Shown: positions 30,808 through 54,891 of the stretch, one piece after another | How the letters are laid out: the number at the start of each line of letters is the position of its first letter | Position numbering within the stretch: position 1 is the stretch's first letter | Source: Escherichia coli | GTDB lineage: Bacteria; Pseudomonadota; Gammaproteobacteria; Enterobacterales; Enterobacteriaceae | DNA length: 64,000 nucleotides | Direction: 5' to 3' (one strand) | Assembly: GCA_023061495.1 (NCBI GenBank) | Contig: GCA_023061495.1_3643.1 | Program-made: the position numbers and the translations under genes | The notes under the pieces: generated by a model | Database searches by the model: none | Seen by the model: the letters and a program-made list of their open reading frames with translations, nothing else | What the model was told of the DNA's origin: nothing

Positions 30808-31569
30808 TTACAGTTCCATAAAGTTTTCTACGATGTCAATAAATGTTTTATCAGAGAAAGCATCAACCGCCCCGTTAAACCAAACTGGGATGCCGCGATC
30901 CTCGTACTGGTAAATGTCACTACGTGAAATGCCATTCTCCCATAAATGCTGTGAGTCGTATTTGTTAACGATCAGTAGTTTAGTCCCATTATTACAGGCA
31001 GGGAATAGCTCCCAGTTAAAATTGATAACTGTGTTGGAACACCCTACAAGGATAACCATATCATTGCTCGTCAGAGAAGTCAACAGGTCATACATGTCTG
31101 TATATTTTGGAGCTACTTCTCCGAAGAACACTACATTAGGCTTGACCCAAGTATACTCGCTTGCATCTACCTCAGAGTATCCAATGTCTTTAATGACGTC
31201 ACTCCCTTCATCATCCTCATAGACTATTTCTGGCAAATATCCGTGGACATGTAAAATATCTTCATGTTTTACACCAGCACGCTCCAGCAAATCATCTACA
31301 TTGGTGGTCAGGTTGATCACACGACCAGACCAGCGGGAATACCACTCAGCGATCCGGAGATGTGCAAGGTTAGGCTCAACACTCCCCAAAGCTACACGAC
31401 GTGCATTGTAAAAGTCATGCACCTTATAGTAGTTCTTGGTAAAGGTGTGGATGTTACACACCTCATCGATGCTGAAATTCTCCCACATTGCAGTGCCACC
31501 AGATCGGAAAGTGGGGATACCAGATTCAGCGCTCAAACCAGCACCGGAGATAATGATCAGTCGTCGCAT
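30808..31569 (-). CDS. Sir2-family (sirtuin-like) NAD-binding protein, no obvious Zn ribbon
   Basis: Sir2 signature ISGAGLSAESGIPTFRSGG, later TTNVD and HVHG; no CxxC pairs where sirtuin Zn ribbon normally sits. Confidence 0.7.
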   Translation of the reverse strand: MRRLIIISGAGLSAESGIPTFRSGGTAMWENFSIDEVCNIHTFTKNYYKVHDFYNARRVALGSVEPNLAHLRIAEWYSRWSGRVINLTTNVDDLLERAGVKHEDILHVHGYLPEIVYEDDEGSDVIKDIGYSEVDASEYTWVKPNVVFFGEVAPKYTDMYDLLTSLTSNDMVILVGCSNTVINFNWELFPACNNGTKLLIVNKYDSQHLWENGISRSDIYQYEDRGIPVWFNGAVDAFSDKTFIDIVENFMEL

Positions 31570-31577
31570 AAGTGTCC

Positions 31578-31928
31578 TCAGTAGATGTTTTGTTTAATCT
31601 CTATTCCAAACTTTTTAAACGAGTCAGCAGCAAGCATGAATTTACGAGCCGCTGATGGGTTAGAAGTATGCACGAAAATCTTCACGTTGTCAACTACAGG
31701 AGGCTTACCAAATACAAATTTTTCCTCCAGCATGGATAGGCAATCGTACCCTTCAAATACCTCTCCGAGATCGTTGTCCATGTGCCACTCAGAAACGCGC
31801 CTGTAGAGCTTTCCCTTATCGTTAATAAAATCCATAAACTCGGAGGAATTCTTTAGCCAAAGAGCATCTGGGAGCCCATAATTTGACGGATCTCTCAAGT
31901 CATCCAGCCACACAATCAACTTCTTCAT
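31578..31928 (-). CDS. hypothetical protein
   Basis: 116-aa ORF between RNA ligase and Sir2 genes. Confidence 0.45.
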   Translation of the reverse strand: MKKLIVWLDDLRDPSNYGLPDALWLKNSSEFMDFINDKGKLYRRVSEWHMDNDLGEVFEGYDCLSMLEEKFVFGKPPVVDNVKIFVHTSNPSAARKFMLAADSFKKFGIEIKQNIY

Positions 31929-32860
31929 TGCATATAGTCCTCGTTGTAGAAATAGCAGTCAAGTATCTCACGGCGTTCCTGTTCCAGGAGGCAATTCCAC
32001 ACATCTTCTGTGTAGTTTCTACGAATGAAGTTTACCATGCCGTAAAACTCTTCGTCAACACGCTTAAAGATATCATCATCCCAAATCTTCCAAGCTCTCC
32101 CTCTCATCACGGCCTTCCGTGCCAGATAGTATGGAGACTTGATCTTCAGTTGCAGGTCATAAGGGTAGTAAGGTTTACGGATCATATACCCTTCGCCCCT
32201 TGTTTCTGCAGCCAACTCTTTTGCATGGCTGAACGGAATTTCACGCACAGTGTGAGGACGTTTTGCACCAAGGTATTTGGCAATCCAGTCTAAAGCTGCT
32301 TCTGGCAGCATTATTCCAGAATCATTGTATCGGCAACCGATCAAATAGGCACCATGATCTTCCTGAACAATATGCGGATCTGAAGGATGGCAAATTTCAA
32401 ACATAAATGTCATATTTTCATTTCCCATAACCTTCTTGATAAGATCTAAATTACCACATTGATCCTGGATGGTTTCCTTTGCGAGATTACAATATGGGGA
32501 ATCAAGAGATCCGGTTGTTGAGAATAATAGTTCACCTTTATGAGAGGATACCACGCCAAGGAATCCGTTCTTTTTCTCTACCGCCGTCACAAGCTTATTG
32601 TCAGGCAGGTTGGTGGAGTTTTCTCCCAAGTTAAACACTTTTGTGAAGGGCCATGCCACAACATTTCCTTCATTACCGACAACAATGCCACGGCACTCCA
32701 GTAGACGCGGAGACAAATGCCATAGATTGTTGTAGAATACTTTTCTGGCATATTTGTAGATCTTTAATCCAAGATCTGGATAATACCGACTGGTTACAAG
32801 ACCTTTATCCACTAAATCATCTGCATTAAAATACTTCATCATACATTCCTCGTTTGTCAT
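31925..32860 (-). CDS. RNA ligase-like nucleotidyltransferase
   Basis: covalent nucleotidyltransferase motifs: I KxNG (VEKKNGFLGV), IV EGYMI, V LQLKIK; distinct from the DNA ligase at 28168..29451. Confidence 0.6.
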   Translation of the reverse strand: MTNEECMMKYFNADDLVDKGLVTSRYYPDLGLKIYKYARKVFYNNLWHLSPRLLECRGIVVGNEGNVVAWPFTKVFNLGENSTNLPDNKLVTAVEKKNGFLGVVSSHKGELLFSTTGSLDSPYCNLAKETIQDQCGNLDLIKKVMGNENMTFMFEICHPSDPHIVQEDHGAYLIGCRYNDSGIMLPEAALDWIAKYLGAKRPHTVREIPFSHAKELAAETRGEGYMIRKPYYPYDLQLKIKSPYYLARKAVMRGRAWKIWDDDIFKRVDEEFYGMVNFIRRNYTEDVWNCLLEQERREILDCYFYNEDYMQ

Positions 32861-32903
32861 TTTGTCACTCTATCTTGCCACACAAATAAACCCGTGTCAA
32901 CAC

Positions 32904-32932
32904 TTGAAATGAACAAAATAGTTATGTATAGT
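32904..32932 (+). promoter_or_regulatory. sigma70-like promoter (TTGAAA-N17-TATAGT)
   Basis: -35 at 32904..32909, -10 at 32927..32932, followed by GGAGG RBS and ATG at 32966. Confidence 0.5.
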
Positions 32933-32965
32933 ATACTATCATTAAAATTAAAACGGAGGATTGCT

Positions 32966-33376
32966 ATGTCTAAAATGCTATATATCGTGCGTGGTCTACC
33001 AGGTTCTGGCAAATCAACACTGGCAAATGCACTATCTTTAGAAGGGCTGTATCCACATTTTGAGAACGACATGTTCTGGTACGACGACGATGGAAATTAC
33101 AACTGGGATGCAAGTAAAGTAACACTTGCAGCAAAATGGTGCAAAGATAACGTAGAAGATATGATGCATATGGGATACGACCGTATCGTGGTAAGCAACA
33201 CATTCACAAAAGAAAAACATGTGCAAGAGTATGTTGACATGGCTATCCGTCATGGGTATAGTTACACCGTAATCGTGGTTGAAAACAGGCACGGTAACAA
33301 AAGCATCCATAATGTTCCTGATAAGGTTGTGGATCGTATGGAGCGCGAGCTTAAAAACTGCATTAAACTTAAGTGA
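32966..33376 (+). CDS. polynucleotide 5'-kinase (P-loop, Pnk-like)
   Basis: N-terminal P-loop RGLPGSGKSTLA as in T4 Pnk kinase domain; start moved from ORF-track 32894 to RBS-supported ATG at 32966. Confidence 0.65.
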   Translation: MSKMLYIVRGLPGSGKSTLANALSLEGLYPHFENDMFWYDDDGNYNWDASKVTLAAKWCKDNVEDMMHMGYDRIVVSNTFTKEKHVQEYVDMAIRHGYSYTVIVVENRHGNKSIHNVPDKVVDRMERELKNCIKLK

Positions 33377-33383
33377 GGAATGC

Positions 33384-33938
33384 ATGAAATATTTTGTAAC
33401 AAGCGACACACACTTTCTCCACCAGCGGGTTATGGAGTTTGATTCATGTCAAAAGCACCGATCTCAGTATAATAGCAATCTTGACAGTATGAACGAAGGA
33501 ATCATCGCAGAGTGGAACTCTGTTGTATCACCGGAAGACACTGTGTTTCACTTGGGTGATATTGCATGCACTAAGGATAAGAATATCAACAACTTACTTC
33601 CAGATATTCTAAATATGTTGAACGGACATATTATTCTTGTTAGAGGAAACCATGACACAAGGACTACTGTAAGAATTATGAAAGAGTTCGGTCATGATGT
33701 TGTAGATTATTACGAGCTTAGACACAACAAAAATTTGATCTGCATGAGTCATTACCAATTCGCAACATGGAACCGCAAGCCCCACGGATCAGTTCAACTA
33801 TTCGGTCATGCTCACGGAACCACACAACAGTTGTTTGGCAGGCAGTTTGATGTAGGTTGGGATGTGTGGGGGAGACTGTTACCATTAGAAGAGGCATATA
33901 GCATTGCAATGTGTTTTGATATTGACAGCAGGGAGTAA
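33384..33938 (+). CDS. calcineurin-like metallophosphoesterase
   Basis: motifs SDTHF (D-x-H), HLGDIA (GD), RGNHD (GNHD/E); start at RBS-supported ATG 33384. Confidence 0.7.
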   Translation: MKYFVTSDTHFLHQRVMEFDSCQKHRSQYNSNLDSMNEGIIAEWNSVVSPEDTVFHLGDIACTKDKNINNLLPDILNMLNGHIILVRGNHDTRTTVRIMKEFGHDVVDYYELRHNKNLICMSHYQFATWNRKPHGSVQLFGHAHGTTQQLFGRQFDVGWDVWGRLLPLEEAYSIAMCFDIDSRE

Positions 33939-36771: not shown

Positions 36772-36800
36772 TTGACAAACTTTGCTTAACAGTGTAATAT
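36772..36800 (+). promoter_or_regulatory. sigma70-like promoter upstream of tRNA cluster (TTGACA-N17-TAATAT)
   Basis: -35 at 36772..36777, -10 at 36795..36800. Confidence 0.6.
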
Positions 36801-37024: not shown

Positions 37025-37138
37025 AATTTATAGTTTTAAATGCATAAATCATACAGATAATGGCATTTATATTTATCGTCGTTTATACTAGTCACTAACT
37101 GCTCGAAAATCAGTGTCATTATCAGTGTTGTTTATAAA

Positions 37139-37229: not shown

Positions 37230-37327
37230 TATTGTTGACCTTGTAATTAAGCGAAAGCCGGAAGCAGAACCGGATTATCAAATGTTACAGTCGTCATCGC
37301 CGACTAGCAACATGGTCAACATGCTGA

Positions 37328-37424
37328 GCTGGGTAAGCCCTTTGGCAAGGGCGAGGATTTTTAATCCTGAAAATAGACGAGGTAGTCGTTGAATACATAG
37401 GTGGTTCGATTCCATCACCTAGCA
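37328..37424 (+). tRNA. atypical tRNA-like gene; anticodon loop reads UUUUUAA (UUU, Lys-like) but about 30 nt lie between anticodon arm and T-arm
   Basis: acceptor GCTGGGT/ACCTAGC (one G-U), D-arm GCCC/GGGC, canonical T-arm GGTGG-TTCGATT-CCATC; fold not fully resolved by hand; no encoded CCA. Confidence 0.4.
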
Positions 37425-37432
37425 CCTTTTTT

Positions 37433-38492: not shown

Positions 38493-38776
38493 GAGTTGCT
38501 ACACTGTTTATTGTGTGCTTGTTATTATGTGGGTGTGCAACAAGCGTTGAGAGAGAATACAAGATTGACCCTCCGGATGTAGGAAGGTTGATTGTTAAAC
38601 CCCCGGAAGGTGCCATGAAACCACCTGCTAAATCTATGCCTTTGAAGAAAGGTGCGCCAGATGCAGTGAATTCTGGCATTATGAGGGATAATAATCTGTC
38701 TTGTAGCAATGATAGAGCTAAATTGATCATTTTGCAAGACTATATTAGAACACTGTTTCCAAAGGAGAGAGGTTAA
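38489..38776 (+). CDS. putative o-spanin (Rz1-like outer-membrane lipoprotein)
   Basis: signal peptide with lipobox-like LLCGC, proline-rich mature region; stop overlaps terminase start (TAATG). Confidence 0.55.
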   Translation: MRVATLFIVCLLLCGCATSVEREYKIDPPDVGRLIVKPPEGAMKPPAKSMPLKKGAPDAVNSGIMRDNNLSCSNDRAKLIILQDYIRTLFPKERG

Positions 38777-40323
38777 TGTCTAAGATTTACGGACCGTGTT
38801 CTGAAAAGCAGAAGATGATCCTAGAAAACGATGCGGATATTTTGGTAATCGGCGGTGCCGCAGGGTCTGGCAAGTCGTTCCTCCTGCAGTTGATGCCGCT
38901 TAAAATTATTGATGACCCCCACAGCTCTGTGGTTATGTTCCGAAGAACAACCCCACAGTTGGAAGGTGAGGGTGGGCTATGGCCTAAAGCAGTAGCTATT
39001 TATAGTGATCTGCCTGAAAACATTAAGCCAAAGTTCAGAGAGAAGGATCATAAGTTTATTTTCCCACGGTTTGATCCGAGCACTGGCAAGTGGGATAGAA
39101 GCAAAAAGGGAGCTGTTGTAAAATACTGCCACATGGAGTATGTACAGGATAAGCTTAACCATCAAGGTCTTGAGTACACCATGGTTTGCTTCGACGAGGG
39201 CACGCAGTTCGAATGGGAGCAGATAGACTATCTGATGTCTCGTCTGCGATCTCAGTCAAAGTATCCATCAAGAATGGTTATTAGCTGTAACCCCGATTCA
39301 GAACACATGCTTGCCAAACTGGTTAGATGGTGGTTGGACGATGAAGGATATCCAGATCCGGAGAAATGCGGTAAGAAAAGATATTTTATCCGACGCGACG
39401 GTGAATTTATCTGGGGAGACTCTAAAGAAGAGTTGATAGAGAAATACACCACGGTTAACGGACTGGGTGTGGAGATCAAGCCAAGACCGTTGTCATTCTC
39501 ATTTATAGGCGCAACAATATTCGATAATCCTGTCTGCTTAAGAGACAACCCCGAATACCTTGCTTTCCTTGAAGGTCTGCCGGAACTGGAAAAAGCTCAG
39601 CTTCTTCATGGTAACTGGTTTGCAAAGCCTGAGGGTGCAAACTATTTTCAAAGATCTTTCCTTCGTGATGCCGATAGAGTACCCCTTGGATCAGTATCTT
39701 GTAGGGCATGGGATAAGGCAGGAACCGAGAGAACTTCCGGTAATAAATTTCCTGACTTTACCGCCAGTGTTAAGGTAAGTAAGGATAGCGACGGCTTTTA
39801 TTACCTGTCCGGTGATTATTGTCCTGAGAACGTGGATGACGGGAGATATTCCACAGGTCTGGAAGGTAAGTTCTGTAAAAAGGCTGGTGAACGAGATGTG
39901 ATCATCAGGAAACAGGCGCAGTTTGATGGTGATGATTGTATAATCGTATTCTCTGTGGACCCAGGTCAGGCAGGTAAGAGTGAGTTCTTAACCTCCTCCA
40001 GATCCTTACTCGCCGAAGGGTTTAGGGTTGAAGAAGACCCAATGCCTTCCAACAAATCTAAACTAACAAGGTTCTCCCCTTTTGCCAATCTTGCCCAACA
40101 AGGGATGGTGAGGATTGTAAAATCCAGTTTCCATCCTGACACTCTGGAAGCATTTCTGACTGAACTTGAAAAGTTCAACGGGGAAAGATCAACATTTAAC
40201 AGAAAAGACGACTGGGCCGACTGTGTGGCTTCTGCGATTAATTTCCTGGAGAAAGAGGAGGTAGCACTTCCTTGTGTGATTCCATCAATCTCATCACCTT
40301 CTATGTTCAAGCGTTTTATCTAA
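38776..40323 (+). CDS. terminase large subunit
   Basis: N-terminal Walker A VIGGAAGSGKSFLL; 515 aa; immediately upstream of portal-sized gene. Confidence 0.8.
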   Translation: MSKIYGPCSEKQKMILENDADILVIGGAAGSGKSFLLQLMPLKIIDDPHSSVVMFRRTTPQLEGEGGLWPKAVAIYSDLPENIKPKFREKDHKFIFPRFDPSTGKWDRSKKGAVVKYCHMEYVQDKLNHQGLEYTMVCFDEGTQFEWEQIDYLMSRLRSQSKYPSRMVISCNPDSEHMLAKLVRWWLDDEGYPDPEKCGKKRYFIRRDGEFIWGDSKEELIEKYTTVNGLGVEIKPRPLSFSFIGATIFDNPVCLRDNPEYLAFLEGLPELEKAQLLHGNWFAKPEGANYFQRSFLRDADRVPLGSVSCRAWDKAGTERTSGNKFPDFTASVKVSKDSDGFYYLSGDYCPENVDDGRYSTGLEGKFCKKAGERDVIIRKQAQFDGDDCIIVFSVDPGQAGKSEFLTSSRSLLAEGFRVEEDPMPSNKSKLTRFSPFANLAQQGMVRIVKSSFHPDTLEAFLTELEKFNGERSTFNRKDDWADCVASAINFLEKEEVALPCVIPSISSPSMFKRFI

Positions 40324-51763: not shown

Positions 51764-52237
51764 ATGGCTATAAACTTTAGACCTACAACAGAGATTGATT
51801 TAGCAGGGCACAACTTTGTGATCACCCACTGGGGACCGATGAAAGCAATGAAAAACATGCCTAAAATCGGTAAGATTGTAGCTGTCCCGCTAGGTGCTAT
51901 CGGTGGATCTATTCTCTCAGGCGGTCAGAATATGGCAGAGGTCCTTCCTACAGCCCTGGCTTACCTGTTCCAAGAACTTGATGATAACTCTATCGAAGAG
52001 TTATTTAAAATCTTGTTTGAAGATATTACCGTGGATGGTGTGGATAAGCTTAACCCTGATGTTGTGTTTGCAGGGCATCTGCTGGAGATGATTAAGCTGG
52101 CAGGTAAGGTTCTGGAGGTTAACTACGGCTGTTTTTTCACACAAGACGGTTTAGGAAGCCTTCTGGAGATGTTACAGCAGATGGGTATGATTCAGCAGGT
52201 GAACAATCTGGATCAGACTCCGGAAGAGCAGGAATAA
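51764..52237 (+). CDS. tail assembly chaperone (gpG-like)
   Basis: 157-aa acidic protein between tube and tape-measure genes; contains slippery heptamer near 3' end. Confidence 0.55.
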   Translation: MAINFRPTTEIDLAGHNFVITHWGPMKAMKNMPKIGKIVAVPLGAIGGSILSGGQNMAEVLPTALAYLFQELDDNSIEELFKILFEDITVDGVDKLNPDVVFAGHLLEMIKLAGKVLEVNYGCFFTQDGLGSLLEMLQQMGMIQQVNNLDQTPEEQE

Positions 52238-52497
52238 GCAAGGTTGTTGTGAGGGCCAGTGAGTGGGCAGCCAAGAACAGTTCACTCAACTGGTTCGACT
52301 TTCTTTGGTGCAGGGTGCTTAAGAATTTCAAAGGGGAAAATTTTGAATCGCTAAATCTTGCAGATATGGCGTATTTCCTGAAGCTCTGTGAGTATCTTGA
52401 TATCGAAGAATTCCTAGATACCGTCCAAAACAGGGAAATGGAGCGGGAGCAGAAGGCTGCCGCAGCTGCTGCGAAAGCTAAGCGCAGGAGAGGATAA
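52123..52497 (+). CDS. frameshift extension of tail assembly chaperone (gpGT-like C-terminal part)
   Basis: -1 frame relative to chaperone, open across the overlap; ORF-track piece 52249..52497 is its distal part. Confidence 0.45.
   Translation, partial: LRLFFHTRRFRKPSGDVTADGYDSAGEQSGSDSGRAGISKVVVRASEWAAKNSSLNWFDFLWCRVLKNFKGENFESLNLADMAYFLKLCEYLDIEEFLDTVQNREMEREQKAAAAAAKAKRRRG
52132..52138 (+). other. candidate programmed -1 ribosomal frameshift site T_TTT_TTC
   Basis: X_XXY_YYZ heptamer in zero frame of chaperone gene; the -1 frame is open from 52123 to stop at 52497. Confidence 0.5.
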
Positions 52498-52551: not shown

Positions 52552-54891
52552 ATGGCTACAAACAAAATAGTTGCCACAACAGTCAACAAGATTGGCTTTG
52601 AGATAGAGAACTCCTCCTACAAAAAAGCTGTAGAGAAAATTCGCAGTATTGGGAGGGAGTTCAGGAAACTGGGCGAGGATTTTAACTCAGCCAACCCAAT
52701 GAGTAGATGGCAGGCAGTGGCTGTTAAAACCCAGCAAACAATGCAGCGGGTTGCCAGACAGCAATCTCAGGCAAATGCTAAACTGCACAGGGAGAGCGTA
52801 GCACAAGCCAAGAAAGAGGCTGCAGTAAGGGCTGCAATAGAACGTAGGGAGAACGCAAGACGTAAACAAGCTGTGGGTAATCTTACCGCTAAAAATCCAG
52901 AAATGGCTAGGATGCGTAAGTTCTACCAGCAGCAAGCTAAAGAGGCCAAAAAGGCTGCCAAATCTGCACCAGTGTCTTACGGCGGTTATAAGGCACCCAA
53001 GGCAAGAGTTTTGGCTAATGCCAAATCTTTCAAGTATATCCCTGGTAACCCTAATATGGGTGGTGTGGCTTCCGACCCTAACCTTGTGAAAGCTCAGACA
53101 GCTGCTATGAATCGTTATCATAGACAGCTAAGAAGAGACAGTAAAGCTGGTATGGATAATAAGCTTATGTCTGATCGTGAGGCAAGGAGAACCCACCTAT
53201 ACAACTCTGCGATAAGACTTTCTGCCAAGTATGGGGCCGGATTCCGTGGAAGCTTGCCAGGATACTCAGAGTTAGAGTCTAGGTTTGCTCGCGGTGAGAT
53301 GAAAAAGTCAACCTTTAACGCCCACCTGTCAGCTCTGCAGTCTGGATTTAAAAGCGCCACCAGCCAAACGCTTACACTGGGTGATGCCATGAGAGACTTA
53401 CGTAGGTCTGTTATTAATGCAACAGCTGCGTATACAGCTTTCTCTGGATTTGCTGCGGTTAACAGATCCGGTCACATGATGGAGGGGGCAAGTGCTGCTC
53501 TTACTGCTGTTACTGGAGATCCAAACAAAGCCAACAGCGAGGTTGCGTTTGTCCAGCAAGAGGCTATGCGTCTTGGTTTTGATCTCAAATCTGGTCTTCA
53601 AGGTTACGCCCAGATGTCGGTAAACGCCAAAAACCAGATGACAAATCAGGAAGTGCATGAGCTGTTTTCTGCATACTCACAGTATGCTGCTGCTTACGGT
53701 GCCGATGAGGTAAAATACCAGCGTGGTATTATGGCAATCCAGCAAATGCTCGGTAAAGGGCAAGTAATGTCCGAAGAACTGAAGCAACAACTTGCTGAAG
53801 CATTGCCTGGTGCATACGAACCTTTTATCAAGGCCACCAAAGAGGCTTTTGGTCTTTCTGAACTCTCCATGGATCAGTTCATGGACATGATGAAGAAAGG
53901 CGAGGTTAAAACAGCCAAGATCATGAAGTATGTGGCTAAGTACATGAACGAGGCATCTGCAGCTGGTTATGAAAGAATGCAGAAGTCTAACGTACTGGCA
54001 GAAAACAGACTGAAAACCTTCATTGAACTGTCTCGTCAGAAACTATTCACCCGTTGGGCTGATGAACTAACAGAGTTCTATTATACACTGATTCGCACTG
54101 GTGAGACTTTGCAATTTGTGTGGGATGCCTCTGGTGATTTTGTTAGTGGTTTTGTGAGAGGTCTCAACTGGGTAGTTGGTGAACTAAACAATACCATAGT
54201 CAAGATCCGCATGTTTTTCCTTGAATGGGGGATTAAATGGGGACTCATAACAGCTAAGACGAAGGAATATTCTGAAGAGCTTAATGACACCTTTAGCTAT
54301 GCTAAATGGGCAGGGTTTGCTGCTGCCATTATGCTGGTAGTGAACGCCCTGACAAAAGGTTTTGTCATGGCATCTATGCTTGTAAAAACCTTCAAATTCC
54401 TTAGTTCTATAAGAGGTGCAGCTGGAGCAGCAGGTGCAGGTGCAGCTACCACAGAAGGATCTGGTGGTGGTGCGGCAGGAAAAGGGGGAGGTGGCCTCAA
54501 GACACCTGGTGGTAAAGTTGGCCTGCTTGGTAAGCTTGGTATTATCGGTACAATATTAAGCGCCGTGGAGTTATTTAATGACCGTTTCAACCCACTGAGT
54601 GAGAGAAATCAGCAACTGGATACTGTCAGCGATATGATTCGCAAAGATATCATATCTGGAGGTAACGGGTTTGTTGATCCTTTGGACACCTTACCGGGAG
54701 GGACTCTTCCGTTGCCAGGTGGCCCTGGTTTTGCTTCTCAATTAAGAACTATGGAAATGCTCCCTTTAGAGATTAGTGATGGTAAAATCACGATTTCAAT
54801 AGATGAGGGGGAGTTTAGCAAAATACTTGATGCAAAACTTGAGTGGGAGAACAACAAGGATATTAACTTTATGTCAACAGATCTTTGGTAA
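52552..54891 (+). CDS. tail tape measure protein
   Basis: 779 aa, helix/coiled-coil-rich with Gly-rich hydrophobic segment (GAAGAAGAGAATTEGSGGGAAGKGGGG); canonical position after chaperone frameshift pair. Confidence 0.8.
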   Translation: MATNKIVATTVNKIGFEIENSSYKKAVEKIRSIGREFRKLGEDFNSANPMSRWQAVAVKTQQTMQRVARQQSQANAKLHRESVAQAKKEAAVRAAIERRENARRKQAVGNLTAKNPEMARMRKFYQQQAKEAKKAAKSAPVSYGGYKAPKARVLANAKSFKYIPGNPNMGGVASDPNLVKAQTAAMNRYHRQLRRDSKAGMDNKLMSDREARRTHLYNSAIRLSAKYGAGFRGSLPGYSELESRFARGEMKKSTFNAHLSALQSGFKSATSQTLTLGDAMRDLRRSVINATAAYTAFSGFAAVNRSGHMMEGASAALTAVTGDPNKANSEVAFVQQEAMRLGFDLKSGLQGYAQMSVNAKNQMTNQEVHELFSAYSQYAAAYGADEVKYQRGIMAIQQMLGKGQVMSEELKQQLAEALPGAYEPFIKATKEAFGLSELSMDQFMDMMKKGEVKTAKIMKYVAKYMNEASAAGYERMQKSNVLAENRLKTFIELSRQKLFTRWADELTEFYYTLIRTGETLQFVWDASGDFVSGFVRGLNWVVGELNNTIVKIRMFFLEWGIKWGLITAKTKEYSEELNDTFSYAKWAGFAAAIMLVVNALTKGFVMASMLVKTFKFLSSIRGAAGAAGAGAATTEGSGGGAAGKGGGGLKTPGGKVGLLGKLGIIGTILSAVELFNDRFNPLSERNQQLDTVSDMIRKDIISGGNGFVDPLDTLPGGTLPLPGGPGFASQLRTMEMLPLEISDGKITISIDEGEFSKILDAKLEWENNKDINFMSTDLW

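Follow-up and report, generated by a model that had tools for sequence, protein, structure and literature searches.

The question raised by this locus is what kind of molecule is encoded in the middle of a phage cluster of transfer RNA (tRNA) genes. The DNA analysed, a stretch of 64,000 nucleotides (nt) from the Escherichia coli assembly GCA_023061495.1 (contig GCA_023061495.1_3643.1; hereafter the window), is that of an rV5-like Vequintavirus, a myovirus, and is 99% identical to phages slur16 and ime. The cluster consists of seven genes, namely Arg-UCU, Tyr, Ser-UGA, the gene under study, Thr-UGU, Met and Pro. The fourth of these, located on the plus strand at 37328-37424, had been described in an initial annotation as an atypical tRNA-like gene with a UUU anticodon loop and an oversized variable region, and every point of this description agreed with the sequence when it was checked. 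The gene is real and atypical, far beyond what chance would produce, because its cloverleaf is the minimum free energy (MFE) fold and is conserved with compensatory changes in 28 distinct homologues. It very probably belongs to a real, selected family of structured RNAs and, judging from its sequence features, is probably not an ordinary decoding tRNA. The best overall explanation, which is favoured only tentatively, is a functional tRNA-shaped small RNA of ~100 nt that serves as a non-decoding mimic or decoy.

Structure and conservation of the tRNA-like gene

The gene and its parts are as follows:

37328..37426, plus strand: tRNA-shaped RNA gene, found by ARAGORN, by the Rfam tRNA model (33.7 bits) and by the family model R1 (106.3 bits, E = 1.5e-23)
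37328..37334, plus strand: 5' strand of the acceptor stem, GCTGGGT, pairing with ACCTAGC at 37417-37423 and including one G-U pair
37335..37352, plus strand: A8-A9 linker and D arm, composed of GCCC (37337-37340), TTTGGCAA and GGGC (37349-37352), read from the sequence
37353..37369, plus strand: hairpin 1 ('anticodon arm') with the stem AGGAT (37354-37358)/ATCCT (37364-37368) and the loop TTTTA, assigned by covariation and pairing probability
37369..37375, plus strand: linker 1, GAAAATA, single-stranded according to the family alignments
37376..37390, plus strand: hairpin 2 (extra or variable arm), GACGA-GGTAG-TCGTT, from MFE folds
37391..37399, plus strand: linker 2, GAATACATA, single-stranded according to the family alignments
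37400..37416, plus strand: T arm, GGTGG-TTCGATT-CCATC, with a canonical T loop, read from the sequence
37417..37424, plus strand: 3' strand of the acceptor stem, ACCTAGC, and discriminator A73, read from the sequence

A good acceptor stem, a D arm and a canonical T arm had been claimed before and are borne out by the sequence. The same is true for the anticodon-like loop TTTTTAA at 37358-37364 with its four Watson-Crick pairs and the juxtaposition of two G residues at 37353 and 37369, and for the oversized extra region, which comprises 30 nt (37370-37399) between the anticodon-like arm and the T stem. The acceptor stem of the window contains G4-U69, compared with A4-U69 in most rV5-type copies. 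Positions 1-97 of the gene end at the discriminator A37424, which is followed by an encoded CC at 37425-37426 and by T as the third base; the encoded CCA is incomplete, as had been noticed, and is present in all six neighbouring tRNAs. The whole cloverleaf together with one extra hairpin is the MFE fold (-33.9 kcal/mol, z = -2.8).

The call made by ARAGORN, which had been suggested as a check, is a 'tRNA-???' that spans 37328-37426 and has a 4-base anticodon (atcc); its neighbours are tRNA-Ser(tga) and tRNA-Thr(tgt). The Rfam tRNA model (RF00005) matches 37328-37424 with 33.7 bits (E = 8e-5; gathering score 29), compared with 60-80 bits for the neighbouring tRNAs whose best match is the same model. 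In this alignment, UUUUUAA serves as the anticodon loop, the variable region carries a 26-nt insertion and position 27 is deleted. ARAGORN called no transfer-messenger RNA (tmRNA), and neither the tmRNA nor the Y-RNA models of Rfam matched the element. The sole YrlA match in the window lies off the element, over tRNA-Met/Pro, and reaches 25.4 bits against a threshold of 69; the termini of the element form just the 7-bp acceptor stem, compared with the long Ro-binding terminal stem expected of YrlA.

Homologues were collected by BLAST and pattern searches and then with a covariance model, R1. The resulting family comprises 28 distinct sequences from five genera of the Vequintavirinae, from metagenomic contigs and from one N4-like phage. 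The genera are Vequintavirus, Avunavirus (Av-05, TH18), Seunavirus (KE22, PVP-SE1, SSE121, EspYZU15, LNA4, 4MG), Mydovirus (KNP2, Mydo, AV124, VLCpiM5b) and Henunavirus (the Erwinia phages Hena1 and pEp_SNUABM_01), and the N4-like Salmonella phage UTK0002 (Schitoviridae) is the lone member outside the Vequintavirinae phages and metagenomes. Members score between 87 and 123 bits with R1, compared with at most 31 bits for ordinary tRNAs. The copy in the window, with 106.3 bits at a cut of ~85, shows A8, the TTTG D loop, the GAAAA and AATACATA linkers, the two G residues flanking hairpin 1 and the canonical T arm that characterize the family.

Phage UTK0002 and the Erwinia phages share only the 114-nt RNA gene, which is 88% identical between them. 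Since the sharing is limited to this gene, it has moved as a unit, and this suggests that the RNA works as a self-contained unit. A blastn search of 5,426 complete E. coli genomes gave no homologue, and nothing matched in an exact-pattern scan that covered 185,579 species genomes of bacteria and archaea. Searches for more distant members, comprising three pattern scans of IMG/VR, one metagenome scan and covariance-model searches, returned the same clades again; the only additions from the IMG/VR and metagenome scans were three divergent metagenomic copies of the UCA type (L101, L107 and L110). The RNA has been retained in five genera with otherwise very different tRNA sets and is kept better across the subfamily than most single tRNAs of the clusters, which includes therapeutic and model phages such as rV5, PVP-SE1 and BASEL Bas48-52.

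Covariation was evaluated on 24 distinct sequences for the cloverleaf helices and the elbow pair, which together provide 22 pairs and 528 cells. The cells are paired in 99.8% of cases, and 12 of the 22 pairs have changed on both sides. The covariation score is 0.486, compared with 0.184 ± 0.014 for shuffled alignments (none of 500 reached the observed value) and at most 0.093 for slid partners. In the acceptor stem, all cells are paired and four of seven pairs show double compensatory changes; pair 3:70, for example, occurs as U-A, C-G and A-U. Three of the four pairs of the D stem changed in a compensatory manner (GCCC/GGGC, GACC/GGTC, GCGG/CCGC and GCAG/CTGC), and the T stem is fully paired with G-U/G-C and U-A/C-G variation. 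The elbow contact follows the same pattern: the second G of the D loop (37345) covaries with a C of the T loop (37407), the pair being G:C in 16 sequences and U:A in 8. Hence, G19:C56 is found as TTTGGCAA together with TTCGATT in the former, and U19:A56 as TTTGTCAA together with TTAGATT in the latter. These compensatory changes across the helices and the elbow show that the molecule adopts the L-shape of a tRNA, and they rule out a pseudo-tRNA, one of two alternatives offered by the initial annotation. The structure drawn by ARAGORN (stem ATTTT/AAAAT, 8-nt loop, 'atcc') was rejected; only 52.5% of its cells are paired, which does not exceed the slid controls, and its predicted probability is 0.005.

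The core of the molecule also has features of its own. A8 and U14 replace the usual U8 and A14 and are invariant in the family. There is no separate nucleotide 26, the D stem and hairpin 1 being joined by a single G. The D stem can be extended to 6 bp with a 4-nt loop, which is the MFE form; the additional pairs U14-A21 and U15-A20, with pairing probabilities of 0.97 and 0.70, never vary. The 7/5 arrangement of the acceptor and T stems is found in 28 of 28 sequences.

The anticodon-like loop, the linkers and the 3' end

Hairpin 1 is framed by the invariant residues G37353 and G37369 around a 5-bp stem. Its alignment columns 30:39 and 31:38 occur in three states (U-A, A-U and C-G) and two states (C-G and U-A), respectively, and 99.2% of their cells are paired. 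An alternative reading with a 7-nt loop (37358-37364) places the anticodon TTT at 37360-37362 and is the sole 7-nt reading in the phage of the window; for this loop to form, the closing pair U31-A37 (gene numbering), which covaries with C-G in relatives, must open. In the window, this closing U-A pair has a predicted pairing probability of 0.96, from which a loop of 3-5 nt is expected for the unmodified RNA.

The loop differs between clades. It reads UUUUA in rV5 (UUUUUAA in the 7-nt reading) and UUAUA in Av-05 (UAU reading). Seuna- and Mydoviruses have the 6-nt loop CAUCCA with the variants CAGCCA, CUUCCA and CCUCCA, and the loop is CAUCAAA in the Henunaviruses, UTK0002 and L110 and UAUCAAA in L101 and L107, both with A33. 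The universal U33 is replaced by A33 in two of four loop types, and the U33/A37 rule is satisfied only in the rV5 and Av-05 clades. Since the orthologues carry UAU, CAUCCA or CAUCAAA, UUU is not the conserved feature of the family; as read from the sequences, the anticodon is lineage-specific, and UUU is found only in the rV5 lineage. Seuna- and Mydoviruses additionally encode a normal tRNA-Gly(UCC), and one phage with the UCA type a normal tRNA-Lys(UUU). The Lys-like UUU reading of the initial annotation consequently holds in part. It agrees with U33, UUU, A37 and A73 of rV5 and with the Lys label in the BASEL records, and it is contradicted by the differing loops of the orthologues and by the covarying closing pair. 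A Lys-specific role is possible in the rV5 clade, whether the RNA is a tRNA-Lys that withstands nucleases or a decoy for tRNA-Lys. When judged by membership tests, the RNA lies outside tRNA-Lys: it lacks class I architecture (30 nt before the T stem, A8/U14, a single G), its orthologues do not conserve a 7-nt loop with U33 and UUU, and the general tRNA model exceeds its threshold only with a 26-nt insertion and with position 27 deleted.

The extra region is equally distinctive. GAAAA of linker 1 is found in 27 of the 28 family sequences, with GTAAA in UTK0002, and AATACATA, which abuts the T stem, is unchanged in every one of the 28, as is the linker AAUACAUA in the same position; GAAAA and AAUACAUA are the best-conserved parts outside the helices. 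To our knowledge, invariant single-stranded linkers of 7 to 10 nt have no counterpart in any known decoding tRNA. Hairpin 2 between them is 15 nt long in the rV5 clade and about 20-25 nt elsewhere, and its sequences are quite different. It is present in the MFE folds of 24 full-length sequences, and in isolated-segment folds of four additional sequences, one (L116) forms another stem. The stems number at least a dozen and include ACGA/TCGT, ACGG/CCGT, CTCTC/GAGAG, CCTCC/GGAGG, GCC/GGC, GTC/GAC and AGCG/CGCT, and the loop GAACUAACAGUAC is common to the Mydovirus, Henunavirus and UTK0002 copies. A tRNA with an insertion, the other alternative considered initially, does not agree with these findings, as the extra region is ancient and conserved, with two nearly invariant linkers and a covarying hairpin.

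Comparison of the linkers and the hairpin 2 loop with ribosomal RNA and with the rest of the window gave just 8-nt matches, mostly with G-U pairs, and sites resembling AATACATAGG are not enriched in the window. Another idea considered was that the two hairpin loops form a kissing contact. Such a contact could form in Seunaviruses (UCCA/UGGA) and in 4MG (GCCA/UGGC, one suggestive loop-loop covariation) and fails in the Mydovirus, Henunavirus and rV5 copies; the pattern is not a general one.

The 3' end varies between clades as well. Among family members, A73 is confined to the rV5 clade. The discriminator is U73 in the Seuna-, Mydo- and Henunaviruses, UTK0002 and the metagenomic copies; copies of the Av-05 type have U or C. 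In rV5, A73 is followed by CC, U and a T run, in Av-05 U or C73 is followed by ACA, and the other clades have U73 and an encoded CCA. Some T4 tRNAs have their CCA completed by the host CCA-adding enzyme, and by analogy it is plausible that the rV5 copy is completed in this way, with its terminal A added after trimming. The T run is found in the rV5 clade only, and other clades have TCCAAA... in its place:

37427..37432, plus strand: run of six T, terminator-like together with the T arm and the acceptor helix

Public records are inconsistent. The identical sequence is annotated as tRNA-???(atcc), tRNA-OTHER, tRNA-Pseudo, tRNA-Lys or tRNA-Stop(tta) or is left unannotated; it is a tRNA-Lys (AAA) with the same boundaries in the BASEL phage records, and the Hena1 orthologue is recorded as tRNA-sup(tca). 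Six tRNAs were listed in the rV5 genome paper, which omits the odd RNA (PMC3606486), and tRNAscan-SE found five tRNAs per Vequintavirus genome, the odd RNA not being among them (PMC10698182). The literature searched contained no paper describing this RNA, and there appears to be no earlier description of the family or of its covariation-supported structure, non-conserved anticodon and invariant linkers.

Relatives in shape and possible roles

In terms of architecture, the closest known molecules are class II and selenocysteine-type tRNAs, which share with the odd RNA a long extra arm between the anticodon arm and the T arm, as do the allo-tRNAs. Two further features resemble tRNA-Sec, namely the possible D arm with 6 bp and a 4-nt loop and the missing separate nucleotide 26. 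The loops of the Erwinia phages, UTK0002 and L110 (CAUCAAA) and of L101 and L107 (UAUCAAA) are one base away from the tRNA-Sec loop CUUCAAA, and pEp_SNUABM_01, the only member scored as tRNA-Sec, has its best Rfam match there with 37.6 bits, compared with a threshold of 47 for RF01852. Allo-tRNAs, which Mukai and colleagues reportedly described in 2017 as non-canonical tRNAs with long variable arms and diverse anticodons, are similar in that one odd scaffold carries different anticodon-like triplets by lineage. However, the helices of the odd RNA are 7/5, whereas they are 8/5 in tRNA-Sec and 8/4 and 9/3 in allo-tRNAs, and the discriminator is U, A or C in the family but G in tRNA-Sec and allo-tRNAs. 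In place of the UCA anticodon of tRNA-Sec, the window has UUU; UCA occurs only in the clade of Henunaviruses, UTK0002 and metagenomic copies, there with A33. Unlike in class II tRNAs, the extra hairpin is set off by invariant single strands of 7 to 10 nt, and the loop of 5-6 nt in most members and the common A33 separate the RNA from both class II tRNAs and tRNA-Sec. Homology to E. coli selC was rejected, as selC scores 9.4 bits with the family model.

With respect to genomic context, the closest analogue is T4 species 1 RNA. T4 species 1 and 2 (rnaC and rnaD) are likewise located in a tRNA cluster and are annotated only as 'small, stable RNA', and rnaC, with a canonical T arm (CCGGG-UUCGAAU-CCCGG), a terminal helix and extra hairpins, is tRNA-like and non-decoding. 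It differs from the odd RNA in its length of 139 nt, in lacking a D arm and in having other internal hairpins, whereas the odd RNA keeps a complete cloverleaf. Homology to rnaC and rnaD was rejected (6.8 bits, E = 1.6), and homology to lambda was likewise rejected.

Another comparison concerns function. Cleavage of tRNAs has recently become a major theme in bacterial immunity (PrrC, PARIS, retron-Eco7, Schlafens, OLD), with phage tRNAs as a countermeasure. Phage tRNAs counter tRNA-cleaving defences, and the tRNA-Lys(UUU) of T5 counters the PARIS nuclease AriB, for which Thr(UGU) is also a target; the authors raised competitive inhibition by viral tRNAs as a possibility (PMC12409363). Retron-Eco7 degrades tRNA-Tyr (PMC12673091). 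Like the T5 tRNA-Lys, the odd RNA is a phage RNA with a UUU loop in a tRNA cluster, and it lies beside tRNA-Thr(UGU), the AriB target. The T5 molecule is a normal class I tRNA of 76 nt with a few substitutions around the cleavage site and restores translation (PMC11464382, PMC12409363). In contrast, the odd RNA has an aberrant body and a lineage-specific UUU. A conceptual precedent for counter-defence by RNA mimicry in a myovirus related to rV5 is the pseudo-ToxI RNA of Pectobacterium phage PhiTE, which Blower and colleagues are said to have described in 2012 as mimicking an antitoxin and thereby defeating ToxIN abortive infection; with its 36-nt ToxI-like repeats, it is a wholly different RNA with a different target.

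The mimic or decoy explanation can be outlined as follows. The RNA would be co-transcribed with the neighbouring tRNAs from an early sigma-70-type promoter, excised by RNase P and 3' trimming, as tRNAs normally are, and given a complete CCA end by the host CCA-adding enzyme. It would not decode lysine codons in the standard manner and would instead act as a tRNA mimic, in which the canonical acceptor, T and elbow body would be processed, stabilized and bound like that of a tRNA, and the clade-specific anticodon-like hairpin together with the invariant linkers would occupy a tRNA-binding factor, which would thereby be diverted or blocked. The likeliest target would be a host tRNA-directed defence nuclease, which for the E. 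coli-infecting rV5 clade would be specific for tRNA-Lys. Upstream of the cluster lies a promoter-like site, which is probably the start of the transcript carrying the odd RNA:

36772..36800, plus strand: sigma-70-type promoter-like site TTGACA-17 nt-TAATAT, a consensus match only (10 of 12 positions)

An RNA-repair cassette near the gene had been proposed and was confirmed by Pfam 3.4-5.8 kb upstream:

30808-31569, minus strand: Sir2 protein
31578-31928, minus strand: cyclic-phosphate-processing cREC receiver domain
31925-32860, minus strand: T4 Rnl1-type RNA ligase
32894-33376, plus strand: P-loop AAA_33 kinase-like protein
33279-33938, plus strand: calcineurin-like metallophosphoesterase

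Together, 30808-33938 looks like a complete RNA damage-response module; the open reading frames (ORFs) of the kinase and the phosphatase are separate and overlap, whereas the two are fused in T4 Pnkp. As the cassette is present, the phage of the window appears to be under pressure from tRNA-cleaving defences. A link between tRNA-Lys(UUU) and the anticodon nuclease PrrC had also been drawn. The T4-type repair cassette upstream and the UUU loop of rV5 support it, and the absence of UUU from the orthologues speaks against it.

In phage V18 (L005 2451-2547), a deletion has joined tRNA-Tyr, of which the 5' two-thirds remain, to the final (3') third of the odd RNA (...AATCTATTG|GTCGTTGAATACATAGG...). 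None of tRNA-Tyr, tRNA-Ser and the odd RNA is left as a functional gene, and the three are therefore dispensable for propagation on the laboratory host. Since V18 lost the gene, the odd RNA is accessory, like counter-defence genes.

A decoy is consistent with the accessory nature of the gene in V18, the early-type promoter and the nearby repair module, and also with a hairpin 1 loop that varies by clade on a constant body and with the competitive inhibition suggested for AriB (PMC12409363). That the RNA is a decoy or inhibitor of a tRNA-targeting defence specifically is nevertheless less likely than not. More detailed still is a scheme in which nucleases of the PrrC, RloC, PARIS AriB, PtuAB or Schlafen type would bind the canonical body, the shortened, fast-evolving anticodon-like hairpin would mimic the target tRNA of the host genus and the linkers would be uncleavable or act as a trap; the hairpin would be Lys-like for E. 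coli, Gly-like for Salmonella, Klebsiella and Cronobacter, and of the UCA type in the Erwinia phages. This joint scheme is considered quite unlikely in all its parts. If the RNA were a decoy or inhibitor, it would represent a new type of anti-defence molecule alongside the tRNA repair enzymes of phages.

Several points weigh against a mimic or decoy. We know of no case in which a tRNA-like decoy was shown to inhibit a defence nuclease. Copies from clades other than rV5 and Av-05 encode a discriminator and CCA, which would be just as appropriate for an aminoacylated tRNA, and within a clade the loop is conserved and anticodon-like (Y32, A37, A38). U33, UUU, A37 and A73 of rV5 are what we take to be the main identity elements for the E. 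coli lysyl-tRNA synthetase LysRS, and UCC/GCC, U73, G1:C72 and C2:G71 of the Seuna- and Mydovirus copies resemble the identity of E. coli tRNA-Gly; that loop and discriminator are coupled in this way is a hint of real aminoacylation. A decoy also leaves the invariance of the linkers unexplained. With regard to the structural evidence, the change from G19:C56 to U19:A56 was probably a single event, and only few evolutionary events may lie behind much of the covariation.

One alternative is another trans-acting, non-decoding role, for instance as an aminoacyl donor in a non-ribosomal transfer reaction, as a cofactor or scaffold for a phage protein (e.g., of the RNA-repair module) or as a regulator of a host pathway that senses tRNA, such as RelA and the stringent response, the CCA-adding enzyme or RNase P. 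Such a role is rather unlikely. It has the same structural evidence as the mimic, the invariant linkers suggest a specific macromolecular partner, and the CCA encoded outside rV5 and Av-05 fits the need for a 3' end; the T4 tRNA cluster with its stable RNAs rnaC and rnaD provides an analogy. However, the sole protein found to travel with the clusters of both UTK0002 and the Seuna-, Mydo- and Henunaviruses, a 203-aa coiled-coil protein (45% identity), is absent from the window, and the lack of Rfam Y-RNA and tmRNA matches on the element also argues against this alternative.

The main rival of the mimic or decoy is an aberrant but decoding tRNA, which in rV5 would be a tRNA-Lys(UUU) that is charged by LysRS and reads AAA/AAG, with an odd body that resists PrrC and PARIS AriB; other clades would read with UAU, UCC or UCA. 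In its favour are the Rfam tRNA score above the gathering threshold with the UUU loop, the labels tRNA-Lys in BASEL and tRNA-sup(tca) in Hena1, the fully canonical elbow, T loop and acceptor, the U33, A37, A73 and encoded CC of rV5, and the fact that rV5-type phages have no other tRNA-Lys. The repair cassette implies that the phage lineage faces tRNA cleavage, and other tRNAs of the cluster match nuclease targets, Thr(UGU) that of PARIS (PMC12409363) and Tyr that of retron-Eco7 (PMC12673091); the T5 tRNA-Lys(UUU) is a precedent (PMC12409363). However, the anticodon differs among orthologues, A33 occurs in two of four loop types, and the loop has only 5-6 nt if the covarying closing pair forms. 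The Seuna- and Mydovirus copies would be redundant with the normal tRNA-Gly(UCC), and the invariant 7- to 10-nt linkers have no known parallel in decoding tRNAs. In class IIb complexes, the class II LysRS approaches the tRNA from the side of the variable loop, and the 30-nt extra region would be likely to clash with it. Moreover, the odd RNA was outside the six tRNAs counted for rV5 (PMC3606486) and the five found by tRNAscan-SE (PMC10698182). Overall, a decoding function is judged to be unlikely. If the RNA were nevertheless a working tRNA, it would widen the structural limits of bacterial ribosomes and synthetases (A8:U14, a tRNA-Sec-like D arm), which would then tolerate an extra region of 30-40 nt with single-stranded linkers and anticodon switching on one scaffold.

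A role in cis only, as a processing or punctuation signal or as a stabilizing or attenuating structure in the polycistronic tRNA transcript, is improbable. Family members are always located within tRNA clusters, in most clades 2-6 nt from a neighbouring tRNA, and the rV5 copy is followed by the terminator-like T run. Yet the neighbouring tRNAs already provide sites for RNase P and RNase Z, and a processing signal needs neither invariant linkers nor an elbow pair, a discriminator with CCA or clade-conserved loops; in addition, the gene was transferred alone to a different phage family and was kept intact there.

That the gene has no function and is a pseudo-tRNA in decay or a tRNA interrupted by an insertion is highly improbable. 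Some pipelines label the gene tRNA-Pseudo or OTHER, the rV5 clade lacks the full CCA, and V18 is viable after the loss, but the near-complete pairing with changes on both sides of 12 pairs, the retention in five genera with differing tRNA sets, the conservation of the 'insertion' itself and homologue identities of 70-90%, which exclude recent copying, all argue against decay. A miniature tmRNA-like hybrid, in which the two linkers and the hairpin between them would form the reading frame of a short tag, with the invariant UAG of AAU-ACA-UAG as its stop codon, is scarcely credible and was dropped: several Seuna- and Mydovirus copies contain 10-codon frames (in AV124, AUG CCA GAA CUA ACA GCA UGG CUA AAU ACA UAG) and linker 1 (AAAAUAG) is reminiscent of the stretch before the tmRNA resume codon, but there are in-frame UAG codons in EspYZU15, the rV5 type and L107, the segment lengths of 22, 29, 30 or 31 nt are not multiples of three, neither start nor peptide is conserved, the G3:U70 alanine identity pair is missing, and ARAGORN makes no tmRNA call.

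Further observations in the tRNA clusters and the window

The spacer between tRNA-Tyr and tRNA-Ser (37025-37138) is AT-rich, comprises 114 nt and contains a long imperfect hairpin (-21 kcal/mol, z = -2.5); a weak promoter-like site is located inside it at 37060-37089. The spacer between tRNA-Ser and the odd RNA contains a stretch of ~65 nt at 37245-37312 (AATTAAGCGAA..CCGGAAGCAGAACCGGAT..CAAATG..TACAG.CGTCATCGCCG..AGC), which is 87% identical to lambda between Q and S, about 357 nt past the Q stop, and which also matches the P1-like phage P7 within its tRNA region. It can form two hairpins, one of which is T-arm-like (AGTCG-TCATCGC-CGACT), with one compensatory change compared with lambda. RNAalifold with three sequences revealed no covariation, and Rfam gave no match for this stretch, which may be a relic tRNA or a small RNA common to unrelated coliphages.

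A coiled-coil protein of 202-203 aa without a Pfam domain is encoded beside the tRNA clusters of UTK0002 (L114 3685-4293) and of Seuna-, Mydo- and Henunaviruses (KE22, L004 600-1211; L115 168-779). The proteins of UTK0002 and KE22 are 45% identical (E = 1e-55). A co-transferred protein partner was rejected, as UTK0002 and the Erwinia phages share only the RNA gene and the window lacks the coiled-coil protein.

Other cluster genes of these phages are aberrant as well. ARAGORN reports tRNA-??? with 2-base anticodons (gt, ga), which implies 6-nt anticodon loops, for tRNA-like genes in 4MG (L015 2822-2891) and KNP2 (L016 1411-1485, annotated as tRNA-Ser in Mydo), and non-canonical anticodon loops may therefore be a wider habit of their tRNA clusters. 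In L110 (2791-2865) and L101 (7862-7934), a tRNA with a CUA anticodon, an amber suppressor called 'Pyl' by ARAGORN, lies beside the UCA-type odd RNA; stop-codon readthrough or recoding in that phage group is possible.

Elsewhere in the window, the tail assembly chaperone ORF (51764-52237) is overlapped by an open -1 frame (52123-52497), with a 779-aa tape-measure gene downstream (52552-54891). The classical heptamer T_TTT_TTC at 52132-52138 lies at the start of the overlap, and a programmed -1 frameshift is probable from the sequence. A connection of the UUU and UCC loops with this frameshift was considered in view of the lambda G/GT heptamer GGGAAAG, which involves Gly and Lys tRNAs, and was rejected, as T_TTT_TTC, with Phe codons, is the only classical slippery heptamer of the overlap.

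The large terminase (38776-40323) is a single ORF of 515 aa in the window and is split into two coding sequences in slur16 (L001 11077-11505 and 11927-12943) and V18; between phages that are ~99% identical, this could reflect an intervening element or a difference in annotation. Finally, about 18 GenBank records (MG0656xx) carry the name 'Campylobacter phage', with Campylobacter jejuni as host; in this region their identity to rV5-like phages of E. coli is 98-99%, and they look like mislabelled or contaminant Vequintavirus genomes.

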